Source: an uncultured Lachnospiraceae bacterium (lineage in GTDB: Bacteria; Bacillota; Clostridia; Lachnospirales; Lachnospiraceae). From it: a stretch of DNA of 64,000 nt. A program made the position numbers and the translations under genes. This document shows, piece after piece, positions 30,386-63,842 of this stretch. Each line of letters opens with the position of its first letter. The first letter of the stretch is position 1. The DNA is taken from NCBI GenBank assembly GCA_902776305.1, contig CACYPS010000036.1, positions 15,051 through 79,050 of the forward strand. Reading direction: 5' to 3'. The notes beneath the pieces are model-generated. The model had not been told where the DNA came from, did no database searches, and was given only the letters and a program-made list of their open reading frames with translations.

Positions 30386-30414
30386 TAGACAAGAATAATA
30401 GGTTATGCTAATAT
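30386..30414 (+). promoter_or_regulatory. Putative sigma-A promoter of the Tad operon
   Basis: TAGACA-17 nt-TAATAT with an extended TG. Confidence 0.6.
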
Positions 30415-30553
30415 TAATATACTATGATTCATGGTTTTTATCAGAGGGGAAAAAGCGGGACATAGTATAAATATGTAATAACAGATTCCCTGAAGTATGT
30501 CGAACATAGCTCGGGGAATTTTTAATTATGTGGATCAACAGTGGAGGCATGTT

Positions 30554-31633
30554 GTGCAGATTAAGATAGTAATATTATCCGAACAGGAAAGTTACACTAA
30601 CAGACTATGTGCGTACATCAATGAGCGCTACAGAGACAGCTTTCAGATGATTCGGGCAACTACTAAGGAAAATGCCATCAGGCTGGCCCAGGAGAACAGG
30701 GCAGATCTTTTTATGATGGACGACGGAGGAGATGTACAGCCTTCGGAGCTGCCCAAAAGATGTCTGTTTGTCCTTTTGACAGATAAGAAAGGGGTTAGCA
30801 AAATCGACGATTCATATGCTGTTTACATGTATCAGGCAGTACCCGCGATATGTGATGACCTGAAAAATATCTACGCAGCCGGATTGGACAGGGAAAAGGC
30901 TGAACTGAGAAGCATTTCAAATGGATATAAAAAAATAATAACTTTTATTCCGGGAGCAGGCGGAGTCGGAACCTCCACGGCCGCTGCTGCCTGTGCAACC
31001 ATGTTAGCCAATAAAGGGCAGAATGTATTATATCTGAACCTTGAGAAGAACGGAATGGCAGATCTCTATTTTAAAGGTCAGGGCGGATCTGATTTCGGAG
31101 ATGTCATCTATGCTTTGGCGCGCGACAACGGGACCGTGGGTGTAAGAATTGACAGCGCTATGCGAAGGAATGATCATGGGGTTTATTATATTCCTGCGTG
31201 CAGACAGGTGCTTGACATGGCTGATTTAAACGCGGGACATCTTGAGGAAATGTTCAAAGCCATAGAGGGGATAGAGAAGATCGATTGGGTCATTGTTGAT
31301 ATGGACTTTGAATTTAATGAAAAAGTTTACCAACAGATCATGAGGTCGCATGCAACGGTTGTTGTGACGGATGGCAGGAAGACGTCTGATGTTAAGACAA
31401 GAAGGTTGTTGCAGGGCCTGCAGGTATATGCAGATAAACAGTCTAAATTTCCGCTGAATCGCATATGCCTTCTGTATAATCGGGTCGGCAGTTATTCGAA
31501 AGAGCGGATCAGAGATATGAGTTTTAAGATAGTTGGAGAAATAAATCGCGTGAGCAATGCAGAGGTCAATGAAATTGTTCGATGGATTGCTGAGCAGAGA
31601 TACTCAGTTTTTTTGGATGTTTTCAGAATGTAA
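30554..31633 (+). CDS. CpaE/TadZ-like ParA/MinD-family protein with receiver-like N-terminus
   Basis: Deviant Walker A GAGGVGTST; VLYLNLE; directly upstream of cpaF. GGAGG RBS favours GTG 30554. Confidence 0.75.
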   Translation: MQIKIVILSEQESYTNRLCAYINERYRDSFQMIRATTKENAIRLAQENRADLFMMDDGGDVQPSELPKRCLFVLLTDKKGVSKIDDSYAVYMYQAVPAICDDLKNIYAAGLDREKAELRSISNGYKKIITFIPGAGGVGTSTAAAACATMLANKGQNVLYLNLEKNGMADLYFKGQGGSDFGDVIYALARDNGTVGVRIDSAMRRNDHGVYYIPACRQVLDMADLNAGHLEEMFKAIEGIEKIDWVIVDMDFEFNEKVYQQIMRSHATVVVTDGRKTSDVKTRRLLQGLQVYADKQSKFPLNRICLLYNRVGSYSKERIRDMSFKIVGEINRVSNAEVNEIVRWIAEQRYSVFLDVFRM

Positions 31634-31650
31634 TCGGCGGAGGCGCGACT

Positions 31651-32886
31651 GTGATTGAAGACGAGAAAAAAAAAATAATTCTCAACGTGCGTAATATATT
31701 AGATGAATACCCGAGAGCAGGGTATTCTGATATGGCATTTGAAAACGAAATTGAGAAACTTGTAATGCAACAAGTCGGAAAGCAATATTGTTCAGCTATA
31801 GAAAAAGCCGAAATGGTAAGGCAGGTTTTCAGTGCTTACAGAGGTCTGGATATACTAGACTCGATACTCAGCGATGCGACGATTACCGAGGTTATGATTA
31901 ACGGACCGGACAAAATATTTGTTGAGAAAAGCGGAAGAGTAAGGCGGATAGATGCGCACTTTGAGGATGAGAAGCGGCTGGCGGATATAATACAGAGAAT
32001 TGTTGCCAAGGCAGGTCGGGAAGTTTCCAGATCTTCCCCGATTGTTGATACAAGACTGGAGGACGGTTCTCGAGTGAATATTGTATTACCGCCGATATCT
32101 CTTGTGGGACCAGTCGTTACCATACGTAAATTTTCAAAGACGCCGATGACGATTGAAAAGCTGATTGAATATGGTTCAATCACTCAGGAGATAGCGGATG
32201 TTTTGAAGGTTCTCGTTGAATCCAGATACAATATTTTTGTATGTGGTGGTACGGGATCCGGAAAGACGACTTTCCTGAATGCGTTATCTAACTATATTCC
32301 CGCAGATGAACGAGTTATCACGATTGAAGATTCCGCGGAACTTCAGATCACGCATGTTGATAACCTGATTAGTATGGAGACAAGAAATTCCAACAGTTCC
32401 GGGGAAGGAGAAATTGTTATTAAGGAGTTGATTAAGTCGTCCCTTCGAATGAGACCTGACCGCATCATTGTTGGCGAAGTTAGAGGAGAGGAAGCTCTGG
32501 ACATGTTACAGGCAATGAATACAGGTCATGATGGATCTCTTTCAACAGGTCACGCTAACTCGACGAAGGATATGCTGAGTAGGCTTGAATCCATGGTCCT
32601 CCAGGGAGCCTCCGGAATGCCTCTTCCTGCTATCAGAAGTCAGATATCTTCGGCGCTGGATATTATTATTCATCTCTCGAGATTAAGAGATCATTCAAGG
32701 AAGACTATGGAGATAACAGAGGTACTGGAGTTGGTGAATGGTGAATACAGGCTTAATCCACTGTATGTGTTTGAAGAAGATGAGTTTAGTTCTGAAGAGA
32801 AAGTTTCGGGAAAACTTGTCCGAACGAAGAATCCGCTCCACAATGTGTTGAAACTGCAACTAGCCGGAAAAAAGATAACTATTTAA
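31651..32886 (+). CDS. cpaF: Tad pilus assembly ATPase CpaF/TadA
   Basis: [43 protein letters not shown]. Confidence 0.95.
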
Positions 32887-32898
32887 GAGGCCTATAGT

Positions 32899-33738
32899 AT
32901 GAAAAAGCAGGGACCGAAATATATTAAGTCGGAACTAAACACGCCAATGCTAAATTATAGGGAGTACTATTTTAGCATGCAAGAGAGATTAATGAATCTG
33001 CTGATAGGTTTTTTGGGAGGCGGCGTTGTAGGGCTGGTTTTTTATGGGGGGCTGTTCCGCGATGCTGACGGCTATCGAACGGCAGCAACATATATCTCCG
33101 ATATAATTATTTTTGTGATTGTCGGTCTGATCGGTTATGCAGTGGTGACTCCTATTAGGAAAAATTCTCTTCAGGAGAAGAGAGAAGTTATCCTGACGAA
33201 ACAATTCCGTTCTCTTCTTGCTTCTCTGGCAACATCTTTGTCCGGAGGTATGAATATGCAGGAAGCTATGACAGCCGCCCGAAACGATTTGATTCATGAG
33301 TATTCGAAAGAGTCTTATATTGTCGATGAGGTAGAGGAAATGTTGGCCGGCACGAGGAATAATATACCTCTTGAGGATACAATCAGAAGTTTTGGCGAGA
33401 GAAGCGGAATTGAGGATATTACTAACTTCGGAATAGTTTTCGCAATGACTTTTCGAACCGGTGCGAGCCTTAAAGATGTGGTCCGCAGAACAGATGATAT
33501 TATCGGAGAAAAAATAGAGATAAAAGAACAGATCCGGACAGCGGTCACCTCGAACCGTACGCAATTTCTTGCGATGATGATAGTCCCTGTGGGGATTGTC
33601 ATGATGCTGAGAGTCATGAGTAGTTCTTTTGCAGAGAGTTTTGCAACACCGGTAGGAATTATTGCAAATACAGTTGCGCTGGCGATATTCGTAGTGTCTT
33701 ATTTCTTAGGTACGAAAATTCTGGATGTGAGGGTATGA
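32899..33738 (+). CDS. tadB: Tad platform protein TadB
   Basis: T2SSF-like fold features (LATSLSGG, FRTGASL); located after cpaF. Confidence 0.85.
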   Translation: MKKQGPKYIKSELNTPMLNYREYYFSMQERLMNLLIGFLGGGVVGLVFYGGLFRDADGYRTAATYISDIIIFVIVGLIGYAVVTPIRKNSLQEKREVILTKQFRSLLASLATSLSGGMNMQEAMTAARNDLIHEYSKESYIVDEVEEMLAGTRNNIPLEDTIRSFGERSGIEDITNFGIVFAMTFRTGASLKDVVRRTDDIIGEKIEIKEQIRTAVTSNRTQFLAMMIVPVGIVMMLRVMSSSFAESFATPVGIIANTVALAIFVVSYFLGTKILDVRV

Positions 33739-33739
33739 G

Positions 33740-34603
33740 ATGGTCAGATTTATTCTATTGATAGCAGGTACTGCCCTGACACTCTTTTTCCTGATTATGT
33801 TGCTTGCAGGACGTAAATATGACAAGTATGTGCAGAATCTCGATGGGATGGAGTTCCCGCTAAAGGATCTCTTTATTGTCGGTTTTGTCTGGGCCTCTTT
33901 TCCGATTCTTAAATTAAAGAATAAGAGAAAAGAAAAGTTGGTTTATTCAGCCGGATTACTTTATGAGCAACAGTATGCCTCTTATTATGCCAACATTGCC
34001 TGGGTTCAGATGATAACGTATGTACACCTTGGGCTTGCACTCACTTTTTTGCTGGCCGCCCTGATATATCAATCTCATAACTATGTGTTGTTTGTAGGCA
34101 TCTTTATTACTGTGTTCGTGGCTGTTTATGCGCTTACATCAATGTCCAATAAGGTGACGGAACGAAGGGAGAACTGTGAGGCAGAGCTGGCCAATGCTGT
34201 CTCGACGATGGCGATACTTCTTAATTCCGGTATGGTTCTGCGTGATGCGTGGGCACTCGTCTCCAAAGGAGAAGGTCCTCTATATGAGCTGATGCGGCAA
34301 AGCAGGGCGGATATGCGAAACGGGGCCAGTGAGGTTGAGGCGATTCACAGATTCGGGAAGAGAAGCGATTCACCTGAAATTAAAAAGTTTGCAAGCAATA
34401 TGATACAGAGTATCGAGAACGGCGGACGCGAACTGATTCGGTTCATGGAGCAGCAATCCAATGAATTGTGGGAGGAGAAAAAACAGTTGTTGCTCAGGCA
34501 GGGCGAGCTCGCAGCAACTAAGCTATTAGTACCGATTGTGCTGATTTTTGTCGGCATATTAATAATAATCATGGCAGCGGCATTTGCAGGAGCGCTGTTC
34601 TGA
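33740..34603 (+). CDS. tadC: Tad platform protein TadC
   Basis: ILLNSGM..AW, ENGGRE, ATKLLVPIVLIF. Confidence 0.85.
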   Translation: MVRFILLIAGTALTLFFLIMLLAGRKYDKYVQNLDGMEFPLKDLFIVGFVWASFPILKLKNKRKEKLVYSAGLLYEQQYASYYANIAWVQMITYVHLGLALTFLLAALIYQSHNYVLFVGIFITVFVAVYALTSMSNKVTERRENCEAELANAVSTMAILLNSGMVLRDAWALVSKGEGPLYELMRQSRADMRNGASEVEAIHRFGKRSDSPEIKKFASNMIQSIENGGRELIRFMEQQSNELWEEKKQLLLRQGELAATKLLVPIVLIFVGILIIIMAAAFAGALF

Positions 34604-34639: not shown

Positions 34640-34867
34640 GTGGATAAGTTGAATGAAATCTATTTGAGGGTATTTCTTTATGTCAGCGGAGTGATTCGGG
34701 ATTTCAAAGAGTCGGAAAGGGGAGATACGAACTTTATCTCCATGTTGCTCATCATTGCGATTGTTGTTGTTCTTGCAGGAGCTTTTTTGAAATTTGGAGA
34801 TAGTATTATGGATACGGTTACGAAACAGGTTGATGCGTTCTTAAATGGTCTTGGAAATAAAACATGA
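34640..34867 (+). CDS. flp: Flp1-like major pilin
   Basis: 75 aa; ERG|DTNFISML cleavage site followed by a hydrophobic helix; sits between tadC and the prepilin peptidase. Confidence 0.78.
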   Translation: MDKLNEIYLRVFLYVSGVIRDFKESERGDTNFISMLLIIAIVVVLAGAFLKFGDSIMDTVTKQVDAFLNGLGNKT

Positions 34868-34891: not shown

Positions 34892-35614
34892 ATGGAGCCT
34901 TTTCTTGTAGGTACTTTATGGGGAATATGCTCTCTGGCGTCAATGGCAGCTGCTGTCAGATGGCATTTTCCCTATATTCGGAGCAGAACAGAAGGTGCGA
35001 CGTTACCCGAGAAGAATTCGACGATGGATTTTCAGGGCGCCTTCCTCGGTGAAAAAAAAGAACACGGGAATATCTTTCGAAGCAGATTGTACATAGCAGC
35101 TGTTGTGCTTCTTGCCTGCACGGCTGGATTCAGGGCGGACTTTTTTGCTGATTCCTACATAAGCCTTATCAAGCTTCTGATCGGTTCATGTGTTGTTTCC
35201 TGCGCGGTCATGACAGATTTGGAGTTTATGCTGATACCCAATTTTTATATTGAGGTATTACTTATAGCACGTGTTCTGTTACTATTACCTGAATACCTTA
35301 CTGACTCGACAAGTGTTGTGCCGAAACTTGTCAGCAGCTTGATCGGTCTGCTGTTCTGCCTATTCACACTTTTTATTGTCTCTGTTGTGACCAGAGGAGG
35401 GTTGGGATACGGAGATGTCAAGTTGGTTGCATGCCTGGCGTTTCTGACAGGCCTTTATGCCGGAATCAATACAATAATTTTGTCTTGTTTCAGCTGCGGG
35501 ATTGCAGCTGCTTATTTTCTTTTGAGCGGAAGAAAAGGGTTGAAGGATGCAATAGCGTTTGCTCCTTTCATCCTCCTCGGATATGAGGTAATGATTATAA
35601 TCGCAGCATATTAA
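34892..35614 (+). CDS. A24 prepilin peptidase (TadV/CpaA-like)
   Basis: Catalytic Asp motifs TDLEFMLIPN and GLGYGDVKL; AFAPFI. Confidence 0.88.
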   Translation: MEPFLVGTLWGICSLASMAAAVRWHFPYIRSRTEGATLPEKNSTMDFQGAFLGEKKEHGNIFRSRLYIAAVVLLACTAGFRADFFADSYISLIKLLIGSCVVSCAVMTDLEFMLIPNFYIEVLLIARVLLLLPEYLTDSTSVVPKLVSSLIGLLFCLFTLFIVSVVTRGGLGYGDVKLVACLAFLTGLYAGINTIILSCFSCGIAAAYFLLSGRKGLKDAIAFAPFILLGYEVMIIIAAY

Positions 35615-35634: not shown

Positions 35635-36966
35635 GTGAAAGTTACAAAAGTGCTGACAGTTCTTCTCCTGATTGTACTCACTCTGGGTGGGTGGTTCTCT
35701 TTTTTAAATGCAGATGGAGTTGCTTCGGTTGGTCTGCCTGATAAAGAGCGACAGGAAAGAATTGCTGTAGCACAGGATTACATAAAACGAGGTCTCTATC
35801 AGAAAGCTATTGCGGAATATGAATCAATCACTGCGGAATATGATAAGGAGGAAGACTGGCAGAGTCTTCTTGCAGTATATCAGATGCGGTATGAAGAGGA
35901 TGAACATATCCGCAAGGATTATCTTGATTCTGCGAAAAGAGCGGTCCGACATTATCCGGCCGATGTATCTATGTGCACAGCACTGATAAATATCTGCATA
36001 CCGTATGAGGAGTATGGCACGGCTTATCAGTATGCCCGTATGACTAAGGACGCCGGAGGTACGGGAGAAGACTTTGAAAAGCTGTACCGGCAAGTTGCCT
36101 ATTCCTATCAGCCGAATGACGGAGTTTATACAGAGGTTAGAACTCCGGTCAATCATTGTATTGCCGCTTCGGAAGGAGACTTATGGGGAATTATTGATAC
36201 CTCAGGCAAAGGGTATTGTTCGAGAAAATTTAGGTATGTAAGTAATGTAGGCGAAGATGGTGTCTATGTCAGATGCAGTGAAGACGAGAGTATTCTGATA
36301 GATGGCGATGATATCATACAGGGAAGGCTGGATTTTGTTCCGGACGATGCGGGTATTCTATCTGAGGGACTTATTCCGTTGAAGCATGGCGGTTCGTGGT
36401 CTTATTATAATGAACTCGGAGATAAGATTTTCGGAGAGTACGACGCGGCAGGTACATTTTCCGATGGAAAGGCCGCAGTGTCAACCGGCGGTAAGTGGGT
36501 ATTAATTAATCAGAACAACGAGGAAGTGTCATCTTCTTATGATAAAATTCTTCTCTCCTCTGACGGAACCTGGAACCGAAACGGCATTATGATTGCAGTA
36601 AGGGATGGGAAATATAATCTCTATAGTGAGAATGAAAAGCAGATCGGTGAACTGAACGCCGAAGAGATGGACAGGAATGAATCAGATCTGATCGCTTTCA
36701 AATCCGGAGACCTTTGGGGATATGCCGACAAAGGAGGGAACATTGTAATTGATCCGGCATATGAGGATGCACAAAGCTTTTCCAATGGTCTTGGGGCAAT
36801 CAAAGTCGGAGATGGATGGGGATTTATCAACAGGGCAGGAGAACTTGTTGTTGAAAACCGGTTCCTGGAAGTCGGTTACTTAAGTGATGAAAGTTCCTGT
36901 ATGGTCAAAGACTCCGGGATAGGCTGGTACCTGATTACTTTTAATAATCCGGATGCGTTAAAATAG
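35635..36966 (+). CDS. Exported protein with TPR-like N-terminus and WG repeats
   Basis: N-terminal TM; WGYADKGGNIVIDPAYEDAQSFSNG and WGFINRAG repeats. Confidence 0.82.
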   Translation: MKVTKVLTVLLLIVLTLGGWFSFLNADGVASVGLPDKERQERIAVAQDYIKRGLYQKAIAEYESITAEYDKEEDWQSLLAVYQMRYEEDEHIRKDYLDSAKRAVRHYPADVSMCTALINICIPYEEYGTAYQYARMTKDAGGTGEDFEKLYRQVAYSYQPNDGVYTEVRTPVNHCIAASEGDLWGIIDTSGKGYCSRKFRYVSNVGEDGVYVRCSEDESILIDGDDIIQGRLDFVPDDAGILSEGLIPLKHGGSWSYYNELGDKIFGEYDAAGTFSDGKAAVSTGGKWVLINQNNEEVSSSYDKILLSSDGTWNRNGIMIAVRDGKYNLYSENEKQIGELNAEEMDRNESDLIAFKSGDLWGYADKGGNIVIDPAYEDAQSFSNGLGAIKVGDGWGFINRAGELVVENRFLEVGYLSDESSCMVKDSGIGWYLITFNNPDALK

Positions 36967-37027: not shown

Positions 37028-37468
37028 ATGATACGTAAGCTTTTTCCGGAAGGGTATCCGGTGGAATATCTGGGTGCCGCTTTTGTTTTTGTGTTTGTTT
37101 ATGTTCTGGAATTAATTATTTATAAAAAGATAGGCGGTCCCAATCGTCATGAAAAAAAGGTAAAAGAAGCAATAGCGAGAGGAAATGTAGTCACGGCGGT
37201 CTTGGCAGGAGACACTCAGTATCTTGTCAATGCGGAAAGAAGGAACACAAGCAGTGAGTATTATGCCGGATATGAATATGAGGTTAATGGCAGAAGGTAT
37301 AGAAAGGTAATACGTTTTAAGTCGTCACCACCTGAAACTCTTACGTTATATTATCTGGATAATCCGGGCAAGCCATTCAGGAAGCAAAAGCCTGCGGATA
37401 TTGCAACACTCCCGATGCTCATAGTTGCATTTATCGCAGGAATGGCCGTAGCTCTCATGGTAAGGTGA
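37028..37468 (+). CDS. Small membrane protein (DUF3592-like)
   Basis: TM-soluble (YEYEVNG)-TM layout. Confidence 0.55.
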   Translation: MIRKLFPEGYPVEYLGAAFVFVFVYVLELIIYKKIGGPNRHEKKVKEAIARGNVVTAVLAGDTQYLVNAERRNTSSEYYAGYEYEVNGRRYRKVIRFKSSPPETLTLYYLDNPGKPFRKQKPADIATLPMLIVAFIAGMAVALMVR

Positions 37469-37553: not shown

Positions 37554-38273
37554 ATGGAAGAGAAACAAAATACAGGCGAAAGCGGGGTTCTTGTTTTGGA
37601 AGCAACCTTCGGCTTTTTCATTACGATAGTAGTAATGTTGTTTCTGCTCAGCATAGGTCTGCTATTGTATCAGCGAGTACTGGTTACTGTAACTGCTAAT
37701 GAAGCTGCCGCGAATATTGCTCAGACTTACAAATTTCAAAAGATATCCGACAATTCAAATATAACTAAAGAAAGTGTGACGAATGTAGTTATATTTCGCG
37801 GTATGTTCAAATGGCTCTATGACGATAAGAATACGTCGAAAGCGTATGCGTATGTTAATTCCAGACTGAAAAAGACGTCGTTGGCCTCTCCCCAGGATAC
37901 TCTCGATGTTACAGTCCACACTGTTCATGATGATATAGGCCGCAATCACTATGAAATCAGAGTTTCGCAGAAATACGTATTCCTATTCGGAGATATTCTG
38001 AATCTGTTCGGACTGCACGGATATGACGAAATATCTGCCGTTTCCCGGGTCGAGGCACAGGACATGATGGGGTATATTTCGACTGTAAAGCTTTACAAGT
38101 ATATAATGGGAAAGACAGAAAAATCCACTTTTGTGAAAATGATAAATAGTGCTTTTGGCATTATTGAAAATGTTATTGATATCGGAAAAAATACAACCGA
38201 TGATGAGTACGCAAAATATCGTGAAGATCAAGCCAAGAAAGAAAAAGAGAAGTCAAAAAAACAGGATAAGTGA
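37554..38273 (+). CDS. TadE-like minor pilin
   Basis: ESG|VLVLE prepilin motif followed by a hydrophobic helix; start may be 37497. Confidence 0.75.
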   Translation: MEEKQNTGESGVLVLEATFGFFITIVVMLFLLSIGLLLYQRVLVTVTANEAAANIAQTYKFQKISDNSNITKESVTNVVIFRGMFKWLYDDKNTSKAYAYVNSRLKKTSLASPQDTLDVTVHTVHDDIGRNHYEIRVSQKYVFLFGDILNLFGLHGYDEISAVSRVEAQDMMGYISTVKLYKYIMGKTEKSTFVKMINSAFGIIENVIDIGKNTTDDEYAKYREDQAKKEKEKSKKQDK

Positions 38274-40903
38274 AGGGGTTCAAGATGCTGACTTGGGTAA
38301 AAAGGTTTTTATGGCGATTTAGAAAGCAGACCAGAGGGATAATTTCGCTTTTCCTTGCATTAACACTGCTCCCTTTTTCTTCTATCGCAATTCTGATTAC
38401 GGAATCGGCCAGATATCAGAATGCAGCAGAGCTTCTGGAAGAAATTATAGACGGATCAGCTTTTTCCACGATAGGTGATTATGATTCGTATCTTGAAGAT
38501 CGTTTTGACCTTCTGGCGACCGGCCAACAGGCAGATGTGTCAGGAAACTTTTCAAAGTATATGAAAAGTAACATAGAAGCGATAGGAAAAAATGCTTCAT
38601 TAGTCTCTGCACAGGCGAGCGGGGACTTCGCTTTATCTGACAAAGATATCCTTAAGGCTCAGATTAAGGAGACCTGTGGGGCGGAGGTAACTATTGAATT
38701 CATAGAAGATGTGGCTGATATTGATGAGCTTCTCAAGAAACTCAGGGAAAGCTTTGGCGGCAATATGGAAAAAACAGTAAAGTCGATGGATGCTCTTCAA
38801 AAGTGTGCGGATGTTACAAAAGATGTCGCTGAAGTTGTCGAGAGTATAAAAGAAGTGTTCGAGATGGAGGATTATTATGAGGCGGTCGAGAAAGATTATC
38901 GCGACAAGTACACTGCGTTTGAAAAAGCTGTTCTCCAGATACCGGTCGAAATAAAAAAGGCTGAGGAAGAAAGAGATAAGGCTCTCAGTGAACAGAATAA
39001 CAGTACGGAGGATTCTTCTGTCGAATCAACAACTGACGGAGGAGATGTTACTCCATCACCTACACCCACACCAAAACCGGTTGAGATGGATCCGTATAAA
39101 TATGAGAACGTTAAAGCTGCTATCCAACAGGCAGATGATGCTGCAGATGAGTACAAATCGGCTGCTTCTACTTTAAAGTCGAAATTTTCCGAACTTGCAA
39201 AAAAGCTAGTCACTATGAATGATAAAATAGTAGGACTTCCTAAAAAGATTTCGTCATCTAAAGAGTCTATAGATAAACTTGTTTCCAAGGATGCTGTGAA
39301 ATCGACGTTTGACTGGGCCGAAGAGATGAGTGCTCAGGCGGGTAAACTGATAATTTCAGGGAATACGGACGCATTAAAAAATAAAGTTGCAGAGAAAGAA
39401 AATCTTGTTTCAGACCAGATAGAGAACCTGAGGTTATTTAACGGTAAAGATATTACAAAATCATGGACACATGATACTTTGGTAGGGAAGGGCTATACTC
39501 CGATTGATCTCAATATAGTGGCGGATAATTTTAAAACAATTTGTGAAACGGTATCAAGAGAAATGGATAGGCTGACGACAACAGAAGGGGATGAAGAAGA
39601 CGCATCTCTCGGAGACCTGCTGACCCTTGCTCATAATATAATGGGTATAAATTTCCTATACGACTCCAATCTGAATGCTCTTGTCACGGACAGTAGTCTG
39701 TTTGTTCAGACAGAGATGAATTGGAATGCTAAGATTATTATCGGCAGCATGCAGAGCCTTGTTTCGAGCGCGTCGAAGTTTGCAGATGCGCTAAAGAAAC
39801 GCTCATCGATAAATCCTTTGGAGCAGCTTATCGCAGTGGCAGAGGGGGTACGTGCACTTTTTGACGTGATTGTTGCTATTGTCCAGTTCGTAGCTGCAGC
39901 GGTAACGTGGGTTGTTGAAGCTATAGTCGGTGGGATAGAACTTATTGGAAATACGGCAAGTGACGGTTTTATGACAACTCTTACTTTAGCCGGTTACGCA
40001 GCATATAATCTGCCGAACCGGGTCACATATGCAGATGGTAAGACATTGAACGGATACAGTTTTTCTAAAGTGTTCAGTGCATCAGGCGGATCATATGGAG
40101 GTGATCAGTCCGGTACTATTGCAATGCTCGAATCGGGATCTATTAATGCGGCAGCATCCGAAGCCGGGATGTTTCGCGGAGCAGAGACTGAGTATGTTTT
40201 AGTCGGAAGTAAAAATGAGATAGAAAACCAGGTTGCCTCTGCGTTTAATCTGTATATGTTTCGCCTTTTTCTTAACTTACCTAATATATTGTTCGGTTCC
40301 GGAGACCCCGGTTCTATGCTGTCTTTTACAAATATAGCGGGATGGATCATTAAGATAGTGACTTTGCTGGTTGAACCGATGCTGGATGTAATTATTCTTC
40401 AGAATGGCGGAAAGCAATACCTGATGAAAGACAGGTTATATCTTTCTCCAAAGGGGATTTTGGCACTGGCAAAAGATCTCGCAGAGGTTTCAGATATATA
40501 TGGTGGCTTGAAAAAGCATATTAATAATTTCGTAGACACTAAAGCCCAGGAATCGATAGATCCTTTTGATGATAAAGGTCAAAAAAAGGATAATAAAACT
40601 ATAAAAAAAGAAACGAGCGCCCTAACTGAGGTGGACGGACTATTTATGATGGACTACACGGAGTATTTGTTGATTCTGTTACTCCTTATGGGAAATAACG
40701 ATATAATTCTTACACGATTGCAGAATATCATTCAGATGGAAGCTGGTGTGCAGGAGAGAGAAAAAAATACTTTTTCACTGAATAAAGCATACACTTATAT
40801 TAAGACAGATGTAGAAGCTAAACTGAATCCCATGTTTAATGTGGATGGATTGGCGGAAAATGGTTTTTATACTGTCAAGCGGACGCAATATATAGGATAT
40901 TAA
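38270..40903 (+). CDS. Large TadG-like (DUF5702-like) pseudopilin/adhesin
   Basis: TRG|IISLFLAL prepilin-like N-terminus; helical middle with PT linker; GAETEYVLVG and DYTEYLLILL motifs. Confidence 0.7.
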   Translation: MKGFKMLTWVKRFLWRFRKQTRGIISLFLALTLLPFSSIAILITESARYQNAAELLEEIIDGSAFSTIGDYDSYLEDRFDLLATGQQADVSGNFSKYMKSNIEAIGKNASLVSAQASGDFALSDKDILKAQIKETCGAEVTIEFIEDVADIDELLKKLRESFGGNMEKTVKSMDALQKCADVTKDVAEVVESIKEVFEMEDYYEAVEKDYRDKYTAFEKAVLQIPVEIKKAEEERDKALSEQNNSTEDSSVESTTDGGDVTPSPTPTPKPVEMDPYKYENVKAAIQQADDAADEYKSAASTLKSKFSELAKKLVTMNDKIVGLPKKISSSKESIDKLVSKDAVKSTFDWAEEMSAQAGKLIISGNTDALKNKVAEKENLVSDQIENLRLFNGKDITKSWTHDTLVGKGYTPIDLNIVADNFKTICETVSREMDRLTTTEGDEEDASLGDLLTLAHNIMGINFLYDSNLNALVTDSSLFVQTEMNWNAKIIIGSMQSLVSSASKFADALKKRSSINPLEQLIAVAEGVRALFDVIVAIVQFVAAAVTWVVEAIVGGIELIGNTASDGFMTTLTLAGYAAYNLPNRVTYADGKTLNGYSFSKVFSASGGSYGGDQSGTIAMLESGSINAAASEAGMFRGAETEYVLVGSKNEIENQVASAFNLYMFRLFLNLPNILFGSGDPGSMLSFTNIAGWIIKIVTLLVEPMLDVIILQNGGKQYLMKDRLYLSPKGILALAKDLAEVSDIYGGLKKHINNFVDTKAQESIDPFDDKGQKKDNKTIKKETSALTEVDGLFMMDYTEYLLILLLLMGNNDIILTRLQNIIQMEAGVQEREKNTFSLNKAYTYIKTDVEAKLNPMFNVDGLAENGFYTVKRTQYIGY

Positions 40904-56000: not shown

Positions 56001-57114
56001 ACGGGCAAAAGAAAGAGCACTGCATGTTATTATGACCAGCTTTTCTATGCAGCCCGGTGGCGGTGAGATGTATGCAATCTATCTCGCCAATGAAATGCGT
56101 CGCCAGGGACTTACAGTTACGTTACTCAATCTAAACATCGAGAGATATGTGGAAGAGATACGGAATCATCTTTATCCGACAGTACCGCTGGTGAACGTCA
56201 GGTCAACAGACGATCTCTATCATATTCTTTACCGAATCGGGGGAGATATTATTCATACACATCATGGTTCTTCCGATCAGATGATAGCATGCTGGCTTGC
56301 CGGCCATAATAATCTTCCTATGAAGCATGTAATAACGCTACACGGGATGTATGAAATGATGTCGGATGATATTTTTGTCAGGACCGTAAGAGATGTTGAT
56401 TCGGTATGCAGAAAATATATTTACATTGCCGATAAAAATTTGGAACCGTTCAAGCAGCATAAATACTATAACGCATCAAAGTTTGTTAAAATCACTAACG
56501 GCCTGCCGAAGGTTAAGATAAGAAAGCTGGAACGATCTGAATTTGGTCTTCTCGAATCAGATTTTGTAGTTGTCCTTGCCAGCCGAGGTATACCTGAAAA
56601 AGGTTGGTTGGAAGCTGTTGAAGCAGTTAAAATTGCCAATGCATCCATAGGGCGTCGGATTTGCCTGCTGATTCTGGGAGACGGGGAGATGAAGAATGTT
56701 CTTCAACATGAAGCTTCGGAGACAATACGATTTTTGGGAGTTCGTTCCGATGTAAGGGATTTCTATGCAATGGCTGATGTGGGTCTTGTACCGACCTGGT
56801 TCAAGGGGGAGAGTTGCCCGCTGGTTATTATTGAATGCCTGCAGAGCGGAACGCCTGTCATTGCCACGGACATAGCGGAAGTTCGGAATATGCTTTCAGA
56901 TGAGCAAGGAGAATTAGCCGGAAAGCTTCTTGACTTAAGAGCCGGTAAGACTGATCCCGTACAGATAGCTGCTATCATGAGAGAACTCGCGGTTAACAGA
57001 CGGGATTATCAGATAATCAGTGAACGGGTCAGGGGAGCCGCCCGTAAGTTTAATATTGAAGAGATTGTCTTGCAATATCAGAAAGTGTATGAGGAAGTTC
57101 TGACCAATGAGTAG
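53029..57114 (+). CDS. SAM methyltransferase, coiled coil, GT2 and GT4 multidomain glycan polymerase/terminator
   Basis: VLEIGCGNG, DVLEHL, GLMDRTHLR; about 280-aa coiled coil ending STSWRVTEPFR; GT2-GT4 paralogous to the 48660 gene. Confidence 0.85.
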   Translation: MHRYDIKLNEEIPDVLNMMYDTIRRQSTVLEIGCGNGRLTRRLKAKGCRVSIIEKDPVLFEIATKYAEDGFCGDAVEIVPAQLEDRRYDYIVFADVLEHLAEPEKMLVSVRSLLSDGGRVLISLPNFAHNDILLRLYDGTLSYTDTGLMDRTHLRVFTYEIAKRMFETAGYFIVQQDCVSRMTGCTEQLIGHEYPITDFLRSLEERKYGNVYQYYFVLTIEESDTELLDQSDEHADIIERRIFFDRGDGYSEESRISVYARKSDLFFDVRVDVPDGVKTVRFDPVMNMPCAISNLRVASNNRYLQISSERVEGDRVVLRTMHPSIYITDLEDVHWIAISGEIEYDYNYLSESRVCFLEKRLIETSRREDRLEEEIRQLTEATEALRKEHEKCEKEWHIEADKQDLRWREELKKRETEWKKELLKQEDLWLAEKEKQVTAWKSELKKARSLHQKQTEELQQLVSSGNIERDRLKEELKKGEDIKEKLSAEIAEMIEYREKQKLYITRLEESIAEEQTARKILADRSESKIEELEKHIREKEDDITTAFEDNAQLKTNLEAVSEENGNLKTQIAELQYLIEQERQDTSAKMNIMEEELARVREVSEARDANIQHLQRVKTECNRQIEELRRLISVYENSTSWRVTEPFRRIMMKLRGICRPERPALTVLTKTAGLISEKSGMTGNMSADTWDYDIVRYEYRPLVTVIVPNYNHGRFLRERLESIYCQTYENTEVILLDDCSTDDSKQILTEYAHRYPEKTRCFFNDRNSGKIMMQWNLGITQASGELIWIAESDDFSERDFLEIMVGLMARESVQLAFCRSDFVQDGRKIWDTEQYLADISCINWDCDFVMTADEIMSKAFSVKNIIPNVSSAVFRNIGGISDDFRKKTENMKLSSDWMFYLELIRGGTIAYTRKVTNFYRVHEDSTSLRIQQTPAYYEEYEAVLQYMVTLYDVPEENFEKVRNTLKEHYRAIHKTADAEKVDEYFSIERIKKRAKERALHVIMTSFSMQPGGGEMYAIYLANEMRRQGLTVTLLNLNIERYVEEIRNHLYPTVPLVNVRSTDDLYHILYRIGGDIIHTHHGSSDQMIACWLAGHNNLPMKHVITLHGMYEMMSDDIFVRTVRDVDSVCRKYIYIADKNLEPFKQHKYYNASKFVKITNGLPKVKIRKLERSEFGLLESDFVVVLASRGIPEKGWLEAVEAVKIANASIGRRICLLILGDGEMKNVLQHEASETIRFLGVRSDVRDFYAMADVGLVPTWFKGESCPLVIIECLQSGTPVIATDIAEVRNMLSDEQGELAGKLLDLRAGKTDPVQIAAIMRELAVNRRDYQIISERVRGAARKFNIEEIVLQYQKVYEEVLTNE

Positions 57115-59245
57115 TGTGATAAAAGCAGTTGAAAATAAATATATAATCGGCTGTTTAGTTCTCCTCACTTTTTTGCTTTATCTGGGCGTGCGTTTGCCGG
57201 AATATCGCAGACAGTATTGGAATGAAGATGATTTGTTGCGACTCTCCGGAGCAGACATATATAGATATGCGGAAGGAATGGAGAACCTGGGAGGCGGTGC
57301 TGTAAAATTTATTGATGATAAATCAGAAATAAGGTGGGAAGACGATAACCTTTCCGGGACGCGATCTGTTCGCTTTTATATCACGGAGCTTAGTGTAGCC
57401 GGAATTCGGACGCTAATAACAGCTGATGGAAGTAGCGGCGAAATATTTCTCACTAAAGGAGAAAATACATATACATTTGCAGAGCCCATTCAGAAAGGCT
57501 GCATAACGGTTTCGATAATGGATGCGAGAGATGTCCGCCTGAATTGGGACCGGGTAGCTTTTGAAAAGCAAGAGGATCAGTATGTATTTCCTGCAACGCT
57601 GGCAATAATACTCATGACCTGCCTCTGTTTGATGCTCTATACAGGAAATACGGGAAATAGAGACTTTCGTGTTCACTGCTGCAGATTTTTTATCGTTATC
57701 CTGCTCTTTTATCAGGTGAGAAATATATTTTATTATTTTGATGATTATGGCTATCTATCGCTGTCTTATCAGAACTTGTATCATGTACAAGGAAATATTA
57801 ATTTGACGGATATTCTTTCATTTTTGAACCGGCATTATCTGAAATGGGGCGGAAGAGTATTGTATTTCTTTTTTCTGATCCTTTATGGCCGGAATATTTG
57901 GATAATACGCTTTGCACTGTGCCTCCATATTTTCATGATTGTGTATATTGGGGAAAAACTGATTGGATATGAGAAACCTCAGGCTCCGTGTATTCTTACC
58001 GCAGCGATGACGTTCCTTCTGTATGGATTAATCGAGGTGGAGTTCATGAGGGACGGCGTATATTGGTTCACAGCTTCCGCAATCTATGTATTCCCTGTTG
58101 TGTGGGTACTCTTGGGGGTCATTTGGATATATCAGGAAAGCTTTCAGGACAGAAAAACCGTTATCGGGAAAAGGAGCAAAACCGTAAGGATTCTTTGTCT
58201 GCCAATATTGTTCCTTGCGACTTGCTCACAGGAGCAAATCAGCCTGACTATGACGGCAATGGTATTGATTGCTACTGTCGAATATGTGATTAAAAGAAAA
58301 AGAATAGAGCCTTTTCACGTGTTGGCTAATATTGTGAGCTGGATCGGATCAGCAATACTGCTCTGTGCACCCGGAAACTATGAGCGGCTGAACGGCACGG
58401 AGGTAAAGAAAAGCATTATTGAATGTGCTGTCAGTGCCTTGCACATTGTTACGTCTGACTCAACAAAGTATATTACGATAGCATTTATGATTGCAGTATG
58501 TATGGTCGCTACAACTACAGCAAGGAAGACTTCCTACAGAGTGATCAGAGTTCTGTGCGTGAGTTGGATTCTTCTGAGTGCTGTTATTGGAATGATAATG
58601 TTCGCAGGTGGATATGGTATGCTGACTGCTATTCAAACCATATTCAGGATCATCCGACTTGAAAGGCTAAATGAATATGGAGATATGATTATGGCGATAT
58701 ATCTGGTGGGAAGCTGGATTCTGCTCATTGCCTGGTATACTGTTTTCCATAGACTCCGTATTTTTCGATGGATTCTGGTGGGTACTGCTGTTATATGCGG
58801 AACGGCTATTTTTTCACCGGATGTATCCCGACGTATGTTTGTTCCCTTCTATTTGCTTCTGATAATGGTAATCGGAGAAATAATGATTACTTTCGCGACA
58901 GACATGCAAGGAGCAAAACAACGGGTTTTTGCCGTGATTCTTGCAACGCTGACTGCCTGTGCAGGGTTGAATTATCATTACATTCTTTACGGATATTACA
59001 GAAATGCAGAGAGTGCCGAGTATAATATGGAGATTCTGCAGAATTTTGATAAATATGCCGATGATAATCATTATGTGCTTCTGGAAAAAAATCAGAATGA
59101 TACATTTGCCAATATGATGCCATATATGTCCGATTATGAGTACATTATGGATTATATAAAAGAAATGTACAGGATTCCGGATGATGCCATTATCAGATGG
59201 AAAGGAAGCTCAGATATTGCCGGGAGGAAGGAGACAGGACAATGA
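57107..59245 (+). CDS. DUF6056-like GT-C membrane protein
   Basis: YYFDDYGY, HYLKWGGRV, DGVYWFTASAIY, APGNYER. Confidence 0.68.
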   Translation: MSSVIKAVENKYIIGCLVLLTFLLYLGVRLPEYRRQYWNEDDLLRLSGADIYRYAEGMENLGGGAVKFIDDKSEIRWEDDNLSGTRSVRFYITELSVAGIRTLITADGSSGEIFLTKGENTYTFAEPIQKGCITVSIMDARDVRLNWDRVAFEKQEDQYVFPATLAIILMTCLCLMLYTGNTGNRDFRVHCCRFFIVILLFYQVRNIFYYFDDYGYLSLSYQNLYHVQGNINLTDILSFLNRHYLKWGGRVLYFFFLILYGRNIWIIRFALCLHIFMIVYIGEKLIGYEKPQAPCILTAAMTFLLYGLIEVEFMRDGVYWFTASAIYVFPVVWVLLGVIWIYQESFQDRKTVIGKRSKTVRILCLPILFLATCSQEQISLTMTAMVLIATVEYVIKRKRIEPFHVLANIVSWIGSAILLCAPGNYERLNGTEVKKSIIECAVSALHIVTSDSTKYITIAFMIAVCMVATTTARKTSYRVIRVLCVSWILLSAVIGMIMFAGGYGMLTAIQTIFRIIRLERLNEYGDMIMAIYLVGSWILLIAWYTVFHRLRIFRWILVGTAVICGTAIFSPDVSRRMFVPFYLLLIMVIGEIMITFATDMQGAKQRVFAVILATLTACAGLNYHYILYGYYRNAESAEYNMEILQNFDKYADDNHYVLLEKNQNDTFANMMPYMSDYEYIMDYIKEMYRIPDDAIIRWKGSSDIAGRKETGQ

Positions 59246-61545: not shown

Positions 61546-62065
61546 ACCTGAAGAAACCGATTGGATAATTGTGATTTGGTCTGCGGTCTCCGCATGTCTT
61601 ATTACAATCGGTATAATCTGTCTTGCCAGAAGTGAAATGCACATCAAGTTGTCAAATAGGGATTCTGAGTATGAACGAATAGATGACGGACGATATGTTT
61701 TTCTTACAGGAGAAGATTCAAATATAGTAGCTTCTCTGATCTCACCGGAGCTGTCAGTGGGAGAAAACAATAAAGGCTATGGCGATGAGGCCCTGTTTTA
61801 TTTAACAAGGCAGCGAAACGGGTATTATTCAATAGTCTCGGTTTATTCATGGCGATACTGGACTGTAGATGAGAATGCGACGGTGACAACTGAAAAAGAG
61901 TTTACGGGAGATCCTGAACAACTTTGGATGGTTCGATACCTCGAAGAAGACCGATATGCGATCTGCACGTATGATGGAGGAATGGTCCGCATAGAAGACG
62001 GAAAAATGCTGATAGATAAAGAAAGGTGTACAGAGTTTAGATTTCTGTCGAGATATGAACATTGA
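61499..62065 (+). CDS. TM-anchored ricin-B-like domain protein
   Basis: One TM, then GYYSIVS and EQLWMV motifs. Confidence 0.6.
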   Translation: MNKYLKRDKENFSPDKPEETDWIIVIWSAVSACLITIGIICLARSEMHIKLSNRDSEYERIDDGRYVFLTGEDSNIVASLISPELSVGENNKGYGDEALFYLTRQRNGYYSIVSVYSWRYWTVDENATVTTEKEFTGDPEQLWMVRYLEEDRYAICTYDGGMVRIEDGKMLIDKERCTEFRFLSRYEH

Positions 62066-62156
62066 TTTGATTTCTGATTATTCACATGTTTTTTGCGAAC
62101 TCGCGGTATATTTTGCAATTATATCGAAAAAGTAAAACAAAAAGGAGGGTACAGGT

Positions 62157-63842
62157 ATGCCAGCAAAAAGAAATAGAATAATGATAATTATTATCGCAAT
62201 CTGCGCCGTGCTGATTGTTGTCCTTGCATGCGCACTGTTTTTTATCAGGCGTTCATCCGGCAACACTCCGGCAGCAGAGAAGGCCGAAAATAAAGTGGTT
62301 GTTGAGCGGGAATCTGAGACAGATGTGATAGATAATTCGGAGAATGGAGAGAAAGATAATTCAGAGAACGCGGAGAAGGATAATTCAAAGAATAGGGCAA
62401 AACCGACAGCCGGCTTGATAATGGAAGAAAGAGAAGTCTCGGCTAATCAACTGCCGGATGGGTACTATACGATAGCAAGTGCGCTTGATAATTCGGTTAT
62501 GATACATCCGGGAAGCAGTTCAGATGAAACCGGTTCGCGAGCTGAACTATGGGATACCGGTGATCTGAGTAATGAGATTTACTATTTTGAACTACAGAGT
62601 GATGGTTATTATAAAATTATTAATGTAAATTTACAGCAGGCACTTGATGTTAAAGATGCTTCCGAAGAATCAGGGGCAATACTGCAGCACAGAGATTACG
62701 ACGGGTCAAAGGGACAAAAATGGGTTTTGACATCGGATGATGGAGGGCATATGAAGATTGAGTCTGCTCTCGGAACTTGTCTGGATTGTGCTGAAGGGGC
62801 ACATGTAAACGGAACAGAAATTCTTTTGGTCGAAGAAAACGGCGGATTAAATCAAAAGTGGGATCTTTACAGGAACGGAGTATTTAATCCGCTGTATGGA
62901 GTAAGGGCAGGAGATTATAAAATAGCTACTTCTTTAAATCTTAATAAAGTGATTGAGCCGGCTAATTCCGAATATGAAAACGATACGCAGATCGTTTTAT
63001 CAGATATTGGAGATGGTGCTCAGCTGTATCATATCGAGATGCAGATGGACGGATATTATGAAATTCTGACAGCAGACAGAACAAAATCTGTTTCTGTCAA
63101 GGATGCGTCTGCAGAAAACGGAGCTAAGCTGACTTTGAATGAATACAGTGCGTCACCTAATCAGCAATGGAGCATAGATATTACCGAGGATGGGTATTAT
63201 AGTGTTTCTTCGTCTCTCGGAACCTATATGGATGATGCGAAATCAAGTCTTGAGAATGGCAACGAAATTTTGTTGTGTGATTTTAATGCAAATCCGAATC
63301 AGAAATGGGCTCTTTTGCCTGAAGGGATACAGCTTGGAGATATGTATGCAACGGCTGTGAGCGGTGTGTATTCAGAGGGAACAGCACAAGTTCCAGAAAA
63401 GGTAGAATCAGGATTATATCAAATTACCAGTGCCATGGACGATGAAAAAGCGCTTCACATTGTTGACGAGAGTGATGCAGAGGGAAGTGAACTGGAGATA
63501 CTTTACAAACAGAGGGGCACCGAGTACTTTACATTTTTCATAGGAGATAATGAGGATGGTACTTACCGAATAACTTCTGATGCTGCAGGCGGGCTGTCTC
63601 TGGATGTGATGGATGCATCGCCGGAATCAGGTGCGCACCTTCAGATGAGGAAATATGATGCAACTACGGGACAGAGATGGATTATTGTTCCGTCAGCGGA
63701 GGGAACGAGATATGTAATCAAATCAGAGCTTGGAACATGTCTTGACATTGACTATGCGTCGGCAGAGGATGGAACACATGTAAATATGTATCAGGTTACA
63801 GAAGCAGAGAATCAGCTTTGGAATTTGCATCGCATCGGATAA
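62157..63842 (+). CDS. Membrane-anchored protein with three ricin-B lectin domains
   Basis: Repeated LDVxDAS..GA and QxW motifs (GQKW, NQKW, NQQW, GQRW, NQLW). Confidence 0.85.
   Translation: MPAKRNRIMIIIIAICAVLIVVLACALFFIRRSSGNTPAAEKAENKVVVERESETDVIDNSENGEKDNSENAEKDNSKNRAKPTAGLIMEEREVSANQLPDGYYTIASALDNSVMIHPGSSSDETGSRAELWDTGDLSNEIYYFELQSDGYYKIINVNLQQALDVKDASEESGAILQHRDYDGSKGQKWVLTSDDGGHMKIESALGTCLDCAEGAHVNGTEILLVEENGGLNQKWDLYRNGVFNPLYGVRAGDYKIATSLNLNKVIEPANSEYENDTQIVLSDIGDGAQLYHIEMQMDGYYEILTADRTKSVSVKDASAENGAKLTLNEYSASPNQQWSIDITEDGYYSVSSSLGTYMDDAKSSLENGNEILLCDFNANPNQKWALLPEGIQLGDMYATAVSGVYSEGTAQVPEKVESGLYQITSAMDDEKALHIVDESDAEGSELEILYKQRGTEYFTFFIGDNEDGTYRITSDAAGGLSLDVMDASPESGAHLQMRKYDATTGQRWIIVPSAEGTRYVIKSELGTCLDIDYASAEDGTHVNMYQVTEAENQLWNLHRIG

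Follow-up and report, generated by a model that had tools for sequence, protein, structure and literature searches.

A low-GC island of a Lachnospiraceae bacterium joins a Tad pilus locus with Ser/Thr-phosphorylation genes to a kinase-glycan-ricin unit

We analysed a 64 000-nucleotide (nt) stretch of DNA from an uncultured Lachnospiraceae bacterium, referred to here as the window. It corresponds to positions 15051-79050 of contig C36 in a genome of 4.08 Mb (128 contigs, 47.8% GC), and positions without a contig name are window coordinates. Between 30497 and 63842 the + strand carries 27 co-directional genes encoding a Tad pilus machine, a set of Ser/Thr-phosphorylation proteins, a pathway for an exported glycan, and ricin-type lectins (Table 1). 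According to the listing of open reading frames (ORFs), every intergenic gap is 95 nt or less, also across each joint between the modules, and several genes overlap. An earlier note on this DNA had listed these genes; ORF listing and Pfam matched all of them in order and strand. Three of its details did not stand: the first FHA gene is not intact, the last enzyme of the glycan pathway is not best called 'LTA synthase-like', and the block does not end at 63842. We see about an even chance that the block is a composite surface-machine island made from two units, each bringing Ser/Thr-phosphorylation parts, with a phosphorylation relay acting on the Tad machine.

Table 1. Features of the block and its borders (TM, transmembrane; aa, amino acids; PDB and Pfam values are E-values).
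Feature	Position	Strand	Basis and remarks
Leader, non-coding	30386-30496	+	Weak extended -10 promoter-like match TAGACA-17-TAATAT, candidate only; count not above shuffle expectation
TadZ/CpaE-like protein, atypical receiver domain and ParA/MinD-type ATPase	30497-31633	+	PF21194 2.8e-18; ParA/MinD-type P-loop matches
CpaF/TadA-type secretion ATPase	31651-32886	+	T2SSE 2e-60; TIGR03819 1.8e-92, under its cut-off
TadB (32899-33738) and TadC (33740-34603) platform proteins	32899-34603	+	T2SSF matches; four TM segments each
Flp-like prepilin, 75 aa, KESERG/DTNFISMLLIIAIVVVLAG	34640-34867	+	Weak Flp1_like match, E 0.004; one hydrophobic segment
Prepilin peptidase, TadV/CpaA type	34892-35614	+	Peptidase_A24 1.3e-11, no other domain
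Signal-anchored WG-repeat protein	35635-36966	+	WG_beta_rep 5e-25; found in 14 related loci
146-aa two-TM protein	37028-37468	+	TM profile; homologues in lineages B and C and several distant loci
TadE/F-like pseudopilin, 258 aa	37497-38273	+	Class-III leader motif
TadG-like protein, 877 aa, DUF5702 C-terminus	38270-40903	+	Class-III leader motif; Pfam DUF5702
TadE-like protein, 198 aa	40928-41524	+	Class-III leader motif
FHA protein 1	41538-42879	+	Q/N/W-rich tandem repeats of about 230 aa (33- and 45-nt units) and canonical FHA domain
DUF6382 + FHA protein (TseJ-like)	42898-43980	+	Pfam 7.5e-16 and 2.4e-15
PP2C/PPM phosphatase a, Tad-type	43991-44782	+	PP2C_2; tree
102-aa single-TM protein, acidic tail, TseK-like by position	44769-45077	+	TM profile; 30-33% identity to lineages B and C
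PP2C b	45098-45865	+	Pfam; Tad-type in tree
Active Hanks kinase, 381 aa, TM hairpin, no ectodomain	45878-47023	+	Pkinase 1e-46; intact VAIK, HRD, DFG
Pseudokinase-TM-ricin-type beta-trefoil receptor, 535 aa	47036-48643	+	Motif loss; PDB profile matches
GT2 + GT4 two-domain glycosyltransferase	48660-50903	+	Pfam; paralogue of the C-terminal half of the polymerase
Wzm permease	50919-51704	+	ABC2_membrane 4e-18
Wzt ATPase, C-terminal glycan-binding domain	51729-53036	+	ABC_tran 6e-24; Wzt_C 1.3e-12 (48 bits, cut-off 30)
Fused methyltransferase-linker-GT2-GT4 polymerase/terminator, 1361 aa	53029-57114	+	Pfam; homologues; tree
GT-C-type membrane glycosyltransferase (PF19528, GT_STM0557_N / DUF6056)	57107-59245	+	Pfam 1.3e-21; about 12 TM segments
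GacH-like phosphoglycerol transferase, 782 aa	59197-61545	+	Multi-TM N-terminus and extracellular sulfatase-fold domain
Signal-anchored ricin lectin, 188 aa	61499-62065	+	Pfam; TM anchor
Signal-anchored ricin lectin, 561 aa, six ricin repeats	62157-63842	+	RicinB_lectin_2 2.9e-52; TM anchor
Zn-ribbon protein start, 302 aa	63938-64000	+	Continues beyond the window; conserved in lineage B

The block is part of a low-GC island. GC content lies at 41-43% from about 29.5 kb to the end of the window, near the 5th percentile of the 4-kb windows of this genome, and recovers only about 5 kb further on. Co-directionality alone is weak evidence for a block, because the entire window is + strand with positive GC skew. 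Promoter and terminator scans of the block gave matches no better than shuffled sequence, an Rfam search of the window gave none, and an NCBIfam search assigned no equivalog-level names to the block proteins. The main support is conserved synteny. Two other lineages, B (contigs of about 50 kb from many samples) and C, have the same gene order as the window, which we call lineage A. Identity per protein is 47-90% between A and the other two and 70-97% between B and C. The upstream flanks of the three loci are unrelated, and all three have 42-43% GC.

The first unit, Tad genes followed by FHA, phosphatase and kinase genes, is widespread in Clostridia. We collected 28 loci through homologues of the 877-aa TadG-like protein and by scanning species genomes, and annotated them by phmmer; the homologues of the pseudopilin genes in them are 24-56% identical. 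Eleven loci lie outside the clade of the window (TadG-like identity 24-33%). They contain TadZ, CpaF, TadB, TadC, Flp, the A24 peptidase, the WG-repeat protein and pseudopilins, followed directly by a DUF6382-FHA protein; a PP2C follows in eight and a Hanks kinase in nine. Their sources are Roseburia, Mediterraneibacter, Tyzzerella, the isolate Oribacterium sp. oral taxon 078 F0262, and metagenome-assembled genomes of Oscillospiraceae and other Clostridia. The kinases are 560-580 aa long, or about 1000 aa with a beta-propeller ectodomain. Downstream of the kinase, where the window has the glycan genes, there is a small protein and a giant surface protein of Ig-like (Big_13, Big_3, He_PIG) or BspA-type leucine-rich-repeat type (loci L027, L030, L031, L036, L039, L042 and L022).

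A survey of 200 Clostridia genomes detected 63 DUF6382 matches in 59 of them. Of these matches, 49 are located 2.2-10.9 kb from a CpaF-like gene, 48 of the 49 downstream on the same strand. A CpaF-like gene is present in 58 of the 59 genomes with DUF6382, as against 13 of the 141 without. Clostridial Tad loci are almost always accompanied by a DUF6382-FHA gene and usually by genes for a PPM phosphatase and a membrane Hanks kinase. The earlier suggestion that phosphorylation genes are tied to the Tad machine is borne out across Clostridia, and Thr-phosphorylation becomes the leading candidate for the switch of a Tad pilus type that is common in gut Lachnospiraceae and Oscillospiraceae. No DUF6382 match lies near a second CpaF-like gene of this genome (contig C4, 195935-197011; 53% identical).

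In the searchable literature, DUF6382 was found only in Garrett et al. (2024; PMC11217815), beside variants of the type VII secretion system (T7SS), so that unit 1 has been hinted at. In the T7SSe/f sets proposed there for new T7SS subtypes of Bacillota, TseJ/TsfJ are DUF6382+FHA proteins, TseF a PPM phosphatase, TseD a membrane kinase and TseK a single-TM protein; T7SSc has a kinase (TscD), a vWA protein (TscE) and a PPM phosphatase (TscF). The same study reports Tad genes beside T7SSg/h as well as a T7SSf ATPase bearing a TadZ-like receiver domain, and leaves glycosyltransferases, ABC exporters and lectins unmentioned. The cassette of the window has the domain set of T7SSe/f in a similar order (DUF6382-FHA, PPM, small single-TM protein, membrane kinase), but it follows a complete Tad locus, and its receptor is a pseudokinase with a ricin ectodomain. 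Neither EssC nor WXG100 family members are encoded on contig C36; both are on contig C64, where the T7SS of this genome (4373-9990) comprises WXG100 and a 1388-aa EssC-like ATPase. The cassette probably works like a T7SSe/f set, but it is not part of a T7SS here.

Two FHA proteins could read the phospho-state. The arginine of the 'GR' motif is replaced by Q in the DUF6382-FHA protein of the window; the family has mostly GK at this site, lineages A, B and C have GQ or GS, and SxxH and N are kept. The domain of FHA protein 1 retains GR, SxxH and N in a motif alignment, as does a VWA-FHA protein from lineage D (see below). Since GR is kept in FHA protein 1 and missing in the DUF6382-FHA protein, the former appears to be the best candidate phosphothreonine reader of this clade, though its gene is split here by a 4-nt AATC duplication (42306-42313) inside the 45-nt repeat array, where the repeats are spaced 45, 45, 45, 45, 45, 49 and 45 nt. 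The duplication is absent from two independent metagenome contigs (L017 and L018), apparently of the same species as judged by near-identical DNA and an identical 535-aa protein. It could reflect phase variation, a strain-level pseudogene or an assembly error. Several metagenome assemblies break within this Q/N/W-rich array.

For phosphatase a the most likely start is 43991; this gives 263 aa, as in the gene calls of L017, L018 and all relatives, and leaves no overlap with the FHA gene. Phosphatase b and the active kinase are a pair specific to lineage A and absent from the B and C loci. In phylogenetic trees the active kinase groups with Tad-type kinases (support 98/94) and both phosphatases with Tad-type phosphatases. 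The genes of the Ser/Thr-phosphorylation circuit proposed in the earlier note are present, but the circuit is not self-contained in B and C, which have no active kinase in the locus.

The second unit extends from the pseudokinase-ricin receptor to the ricin lectins and was found in quite different surroundings. Loci D1 and D2, whose polymerase is 45-46% identical to that of the window, open with two WXG100 genes, a 182-aa protein, a membrane VWA-FHA protein and a PP2C, and look like the T7SS sets (PMC11217815) with their WXG100, VWA-FHA, PPM and kinase genes. They continue with an active Zn-ribbon-kinase-TM-ricin protein, the GT2-GT4 enzyme, Wzm, Wzt, the polymerase, the GT-C and GacH-like enzymes and a ricin protein of 738-748 aa, beyond which the genes are unrelated. 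The two lectins of the window are one fused protein in these loci, the 738-aa protein of D1 aligning to both. In lineage E (polymerase 41% identical) a tail-anchored Zn-ribbon-kinase is followed by Wzm, Wzt, the polymerase and an anchored ricin protein of 357 aa, and the surrounding genes are metabolic. GC content of the unit 2 loci ranges from 32% to 52%, and their flanks differ.

In a maximum-likelihood tree of the polymerase, A, B, C, D1, D2 and E form one clade with support 100/100. Two further members, F and P0053, fall into this clade and are excluded from the statement on gene content, their flanks being unread. Wherever the flanks of a clade member can be read, its glycan genes are immediately preceded by a Hanks-type kinase gene and immediately followed by a ricin gene. 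The sister locus (L055) contains GT1, RgpF, Wzm, Wzt, polymerase, epimerase, GT-C and nucleotidyltransferase genes and neither a kinase nor a lectin; it is an ordinary rhamnan-type wall-polysaccharide cluster. About 80 more distant metagenome GT2-GT4 loci gave no kinase, PP2C, FHA or ricin matches, except for one copy of lineage B, and none of these four was found with the glycan loci of four Clostridia genomes that have separate methyltransferase terminators. Because the clade is single and its outgroups are free of kinase and ricin genes, we conclude that the link of kinase and ricin to the glycan genes arose once; it has been kept through deep divergence in three contexts. The 1361-aa polymerase is the signature gene of the clade.

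Lectin-(pseudo)kinase, capped-glycan pathway and ricin proteins, which the earlier note had placed in one block, thus form a unit conserved at 41-46% polymerase identity in unrelated contexts. The larger claim of the note, that all four modules form one system, is not supported in that form, as they are not an obligate set. Neighbourhood comparison supports the pairing of Tad with phosphorylation genes and that of kinase, glycan and ricin genes; the glycan unit also stands beside a WXG100 (T7SS-type) locus or alone, and its coupling to Tad is confined to A, B and C. The four-module set is clade-specific, with the Thr-phosphorylation parts as the common element. We found no description of the kinase-glycan-ricin unit, or of its docking to two types of machine, in the literature, and the unit is apparently undescribed.

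The product of the glycan genes is likely an ABC-transporter-dependent, terminally modified wall polysaccharide. Export by Wzm/Wzt of a polymer finished in the cytoplasm is shared with the Gram-positive ABC wall polysaccharides (GAC/SCC, Rha-CWPS; PMC9574508), as are the outside-acting GT-C side-chain enzyme and the GacH-type glycerol-phosphate transferase; RgpF is present in the sister locus. The two enzymes correspond to the steps by which the rhamnose-rich wall polysaccharides of streptococci, lactococci and enterococci are decorated on the outside (PMC9574508). The GT-C protein had no sequence match in the PDB. For the 782-aa protein, GacH (5u9z, 5wcx; 2.4e-18) was a better match than LtaS (1.2e-10), and identity with LTA synthase was rejected on this ground. 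Its domain layout and the Wzm/Wzt locus agree with a GacH-type enzyme, that is, a predicted glycerol-phosphate decorator of a wall polysaccharide; the polymer would accordingly bear glycerol phosphate.

The C-terminal binding domain of Wzt and the methyltransferase-bearing terminator/polymerase are features shared with capped O-antigens and S-layer glycans such as those of E. coli O9a (WbdD/Wzt) and Geobacillus (WsaE). By analogy with these, the chain would end in a methyl cap recognized by Wzt. The window differs from the known wall-polysaccharide and capped-glycan systems in the fusion of methyltransferase, linker, GT2 and GT4 in one protein and in the flanking kinase and ricin lectins. The block lacks rml and other sugar-nucleotide genes as well as an initiating transferase and an LCP ligase, so these functions must come from elsewhere.

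Since glycan and pilin genes share one block, the glycan might instead be attached to the pilus, as the earlier note had also suggested. The GT-C protein would then act as an oligosaccharyltransferase on Flp or the pseudopilins, and the sulfatase-fold enzyme would add a phospho-form like PptA of Neisseria. In favour of this alternative, the type IV pilins of Gram-negative bacteria are modified by GT-C enzymes (TfpW) and by phospho-form transferases of the sulfatase fold (PptA). However, the T7SS-linked loci carry the same GT-C and GacH-like genes and no pilin gene, lineage E lacks both, the 782-aa protein matches a wall-polysaccharide decorator, and the sister locus is of the rhamnan type. As the glycan unit is found without any pilin, we regard a pilin-specific glycan as very improbable.

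The receptor at the head of unit 2 consists of a cytoplasmic domain, one TM segment and about 185 aa outside the membrane. Compared with 12 active homologues in an alignment, it has lost the catalytic motifs: the lysine is replaced by Y (YIIYE in place of a VAIKE-type motif), HRD by TTI and DFG by CWG, while the APE region is kept. All three lineages A, B and C show this loss. In the PDB, a profile built from their orthologues matched the designed beta-trefoil ThreeFoil (3.9e-9), the T6SS kinase PpkA (1.4e-7) and a Ricin B lectin CBM (6.6e-5), followed by StkP and PknB. With kinase-fold matches and the catalytic Lys, HRD Asp and DFG Asp gone, the cytoplasmic domain is a Hanks-type pseudokinase. 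The receptor aligns over its full length with the active kinase-TM-ricin protein of the D loci (E 2e-28), in which Pfam detects Pkinase (1.6e-33) and RicinB_lectin_2 (6.5e-14). The ectodomain bears QFW and QQW motifs; like the 561-aa lectin, it is a ricin-type (R-type, CBM13) beta-trefoil with QxW repeats. It resembles the neighbouring ricin proteins (phmmer 1e-8 to 5e-6) and is 33-39% identical over about 80 aa to those of D2 and E. Among 5.8 billion proteins the receptor has only two true homologues, both in the same-order loci of lineages B and C. The ricin-bearing kinase is thus predicted to be catalytically dead in the Tad-linked lineages.

The border between the two units can be placed. 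In the kinase tree the kinase of lineage E groups with the D kinase-ricin proteins (98/98). The receptor's kinase domain sits on a long branch there, but its full-length similarity places it with D. The active kinase being Tad-type and the pseudokinase D-type, the join lies between the 381-aa kinase and the pseudokinase, at the place where both units carry homologous kinase genes. The receptor probably lost catalysis in connection with the presence (A) or former presence (B, C) of a Tad-type kinase. It would illustrate how, in nature, an active receptor kinase becomes a pseudokinase when a second kinase is available.

Such a precise join bears on the plainest explanation, that a Tad island picked up a wall-polysaccharide locus and shared descent kept the order, with no functional link. 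The limitation of the Tad-glycan join to A, B and C fits simple adjacency, as do the co-directionality of the whole window and the uninformative promoter and terminator scans. However, order and tight spacing persist across more than 37 kb at protein identities of 47-90%, with different upstream flanks in the three lineages; in D the glycan unit follows, in line, on another machine locus with phospho-regulation; and the join falls exactly between kinase-type genes. We therefore consider adjacency improbable.

The main rival is that kinase and lectin serve only the glycan pathway. The kinase would tune synthesis, export or chain length and the ricin proteins would bind or retain the polymer, whereas Tad would remain under its own FHA/PP2C set, the unit adjoining Tad or T7SS genes through clustering of surface genes. 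Lineage E, with kinase, Wzm, Wzt, polymerase and ricin protein and no Tad, T7SS, FHA or PP2C genes, is what this would predict. By phylogeny, moreover, the window's active kinase and its two phosphatases are Tad-type and only its pseudokinase belongs with the glycan unit, and most Tad/FHA/PP2C/kinase loci have no glycan genes. On the other side, the kinase-ricin gene of D1 and D2 stands in line after VWA-FHA and PP2C, near WXG100, at the kinase position of the T7SS-linked sets (PMC11217815), and A, B and C keep the receptor with its ectodomain despite lost catalysis, which suits a sensor or scaffold better. As a whole, this explanation seems to us rather unlikely, though less so than adjacency.

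We regard a lectin-input Thr-phosphorylation relay on the pilus machine as the most likely mechanism. A polymer made in the cytoplasm by the GT2-GT4 enzyme and the methyltransferase-GT2-GT4 polymerase/terminator would be exported by Wzm/Wzt and decorated outside the membrane by the GT-C and GacH-like enzymes. The lectin ectodomain of the receptor would read a surface glycan, most simply the polymer of the neighbouring genes, on the same or a neighbouring cell. The pseudokinase would relay the signal to the adjacent active kinase, which has no ectodomain of its own, and the FHA readers and two PP2Cs would turn the phospho-state into Tad assembly or activity. We infer the ligand, the direction of signalling and the phospho-targets. 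The scheme parallels PpkA/PppA/Fha1 of the T6SS and the TseD/TseF/TseJ set proposed for T7SS variants. That the lectin would sense the locus glycan and gate the pilus is plausible.

Several points weigh against this relay. The DUF6382-FHA proteins of A, B and C lack a basic residue at the phosphothreonine-contacting 'GR' position, and the canonical FHA gene is frameshifted in this assembly. In B and C, signalling would need a kinase encoded elsewhere. The Tad-glycan join represents one evolutionary event; A shares 47-90% identity with B and C, but B and C are 70-97% identical to each other. Lineage E is without any machine, and there a kinase controlling the glycan pathway fits at least equally well. 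An AlphaFold2 model of the receptor (three-sequence alignment) had a pLDDT of 35, was unusable and was not used. Ricin domains are, finally, common in the genus, so that the ligand could be a dietary or host glycan.

This last point concerns the genome as a whole. PF14200 is matched 57 times in it, by about 17 proteins spread over many contigs; four of these proteins are on contig C36 (an upstream S8 protease, the receptor and the two lectins). Of 40 genomes of the genus, 34 have ricin matches too, whereas the 36 same-genus genomes searched for the island DUF6382-FHA protein gave FHA-domain-level matches only and no close homologue, so the island is not a genus trait. Since ricin is common in the genus, also in island-free genomes, ricin modules are a general tool of the group and their mere presence says little. 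What is specific is rather their conserved placement: a ricin gene behind the glycan genes and a ricin ectodomain on the (pseudo)kinase. We also considered that the ricin-tagged proteins of the genome are anchored on the island glycan; this was rejected, ricin being equally common in 34 of 40 genus genomes and none of the 36 searched having a close homologue of the island DUF6382-FHA gene.

As a tentative proposal, the second unit may be a portable combination, in Gram-positive bacteria, of a lectin receptor kinase and a dedicated glycan, which triggers the machine to which it is docked (Tad here, a T7SS elsewhere) via FHA and PP2C proteins. The ricin ectodomain would read the methyl-capped polymer with glycerol-phosphate decoration that the adjoining genes make, on its own cell or a neighbouring one. 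It would then be a bacterial counterpart of lectin receptor kinases, co-inherited with a specific surface-glycan pathway and membrane lectins, and could let pili and toxin secretion respond to contact, or to self and non-self, through glycans. Its docking to two nanomachine loci points to a testable input for contact sensing, kin recognition or adhesion control in the gut microbiota.

Two other machines invite comparison. The H1 type VI secretion system (T6SS) of Pseudomonas aeruginosa likewise has a sensor-bearing membrane Hanks kinase (PpkA), a PP2C (PppA) and an FHA protein (Fha1) in the machine locus, and PpkA is the best PDB kinase match of the pseudokinase profile. The window differs in having Tad in a Gram-positive envelope, a ricin rather than a vWA sensor, a dead receptor kinase and an attached glycan pathway. 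No T6SS genes were among the Pfam results for the block, and the likeness is one of analogy only. The Kil system of Myxococcus xanthus is a Tad-like machine for contact-dependent killing in which FHA domains are over-represented and a phospho-trigger on contact has been proposed (Seef et al., 2021; PMC8460266). The window shares with it a Tad-type machine with FHA proteins. Kil, by contrast, is diderm with a secretin, has FHA fused to the ATPase, and lacks DUF6382, an in-line PP2C/kinase pair, glycan genes and lectins.

The Tad machine itself resembles the monoderm Tad/Flp (type IVc) kind, of which tad2003 of Bifidobacterium breve is an example. CpaF ATPase, TadB and TadC, TadZ with an atypical receiver domain, TadE/F/G-type pseudopilins and a TadV-type peptidase are present together with a candidate Flp-type prepilin, and there is no secretin. 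The window differs from this kind by the WG-repeat protein, the 877-aa TadG-like protein and the in-line FHA/PPM/kinase set; the WG-repeat protein is a fixed member of this Clostridial Tad type. TadZ (75% identical to B and C) likely starts in truth at GTG 30554 after GGAGG, giving 359 aa as in its relatives. CpaF is 89-90% identical to its B and C counterparts. The Flp-like prepilin, which lacks a Glu at +5 relative to its predicted cleavage after G, is kept in all related loci and is 70-72% identical between A and either B or C. The class-III leaders of the three pseudopilins are G/VLVLE, G/IISL and G/AIILE, and the Pfam TadE match is weak.

Beyond the window the island continues with Zn-ribbon and Zn-ribbon-TM-discoidin proteins, an AAA ATPase, a 161-aa protein, a VWA protein and a tubulin-like protein. 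The collinear block of A and B accordingly runs from TadZ through both ricin proteins to the Zn-ribbon, Zn-ribbon-TM-discoidin, VWA (70%) and tubulin-like (61%) proteins, whereas the AAA ATPase (526 aa) and the 161-aa protein (L001, 2942-5020) occur in lineage A only. Since the VWA and Tubulin_2 pair is kept in B, it belongs to the island. In A it lies at L001 5171-8538 (contig C36, 83170-86537) and consists of an 894-aa two-TM VWA protein followed by Tubulin_2 (PF13809), which is cut by the contig end. The Zn-ribbon and Zn-ribbon-TM-F5/8C (discoidin) proteins follow the ricin genes in lineages A and B (L001, 989-2923; L043, 14606-16635). Counting the latter, at least four single-pass proteins of the island bear a sugar-binding-type domain on the outside. 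A Zn ribbon is also found at the start of the active kinases of lineages D and E.

Directly upstream of TadZ, at the drop in GC content, is a gene (29589-30203) whose 204-aa product has four TM segments and ends in a Cys-rich, Zn-ribbon-like tail; lineage C has a 201-aa ORF of unrelated sequence at the matching position. Further upstream, in DNA of normal GC content (23955-29247), are genes for a 1177-aa S8 subtilase with four ricin repeats and a 583-aa multi-TM protein. The latter has no Pfam match and contains 69-nt tandem repeats in its gene (28560-28731). Both are without counterparts beside the loci of lineages B and C.

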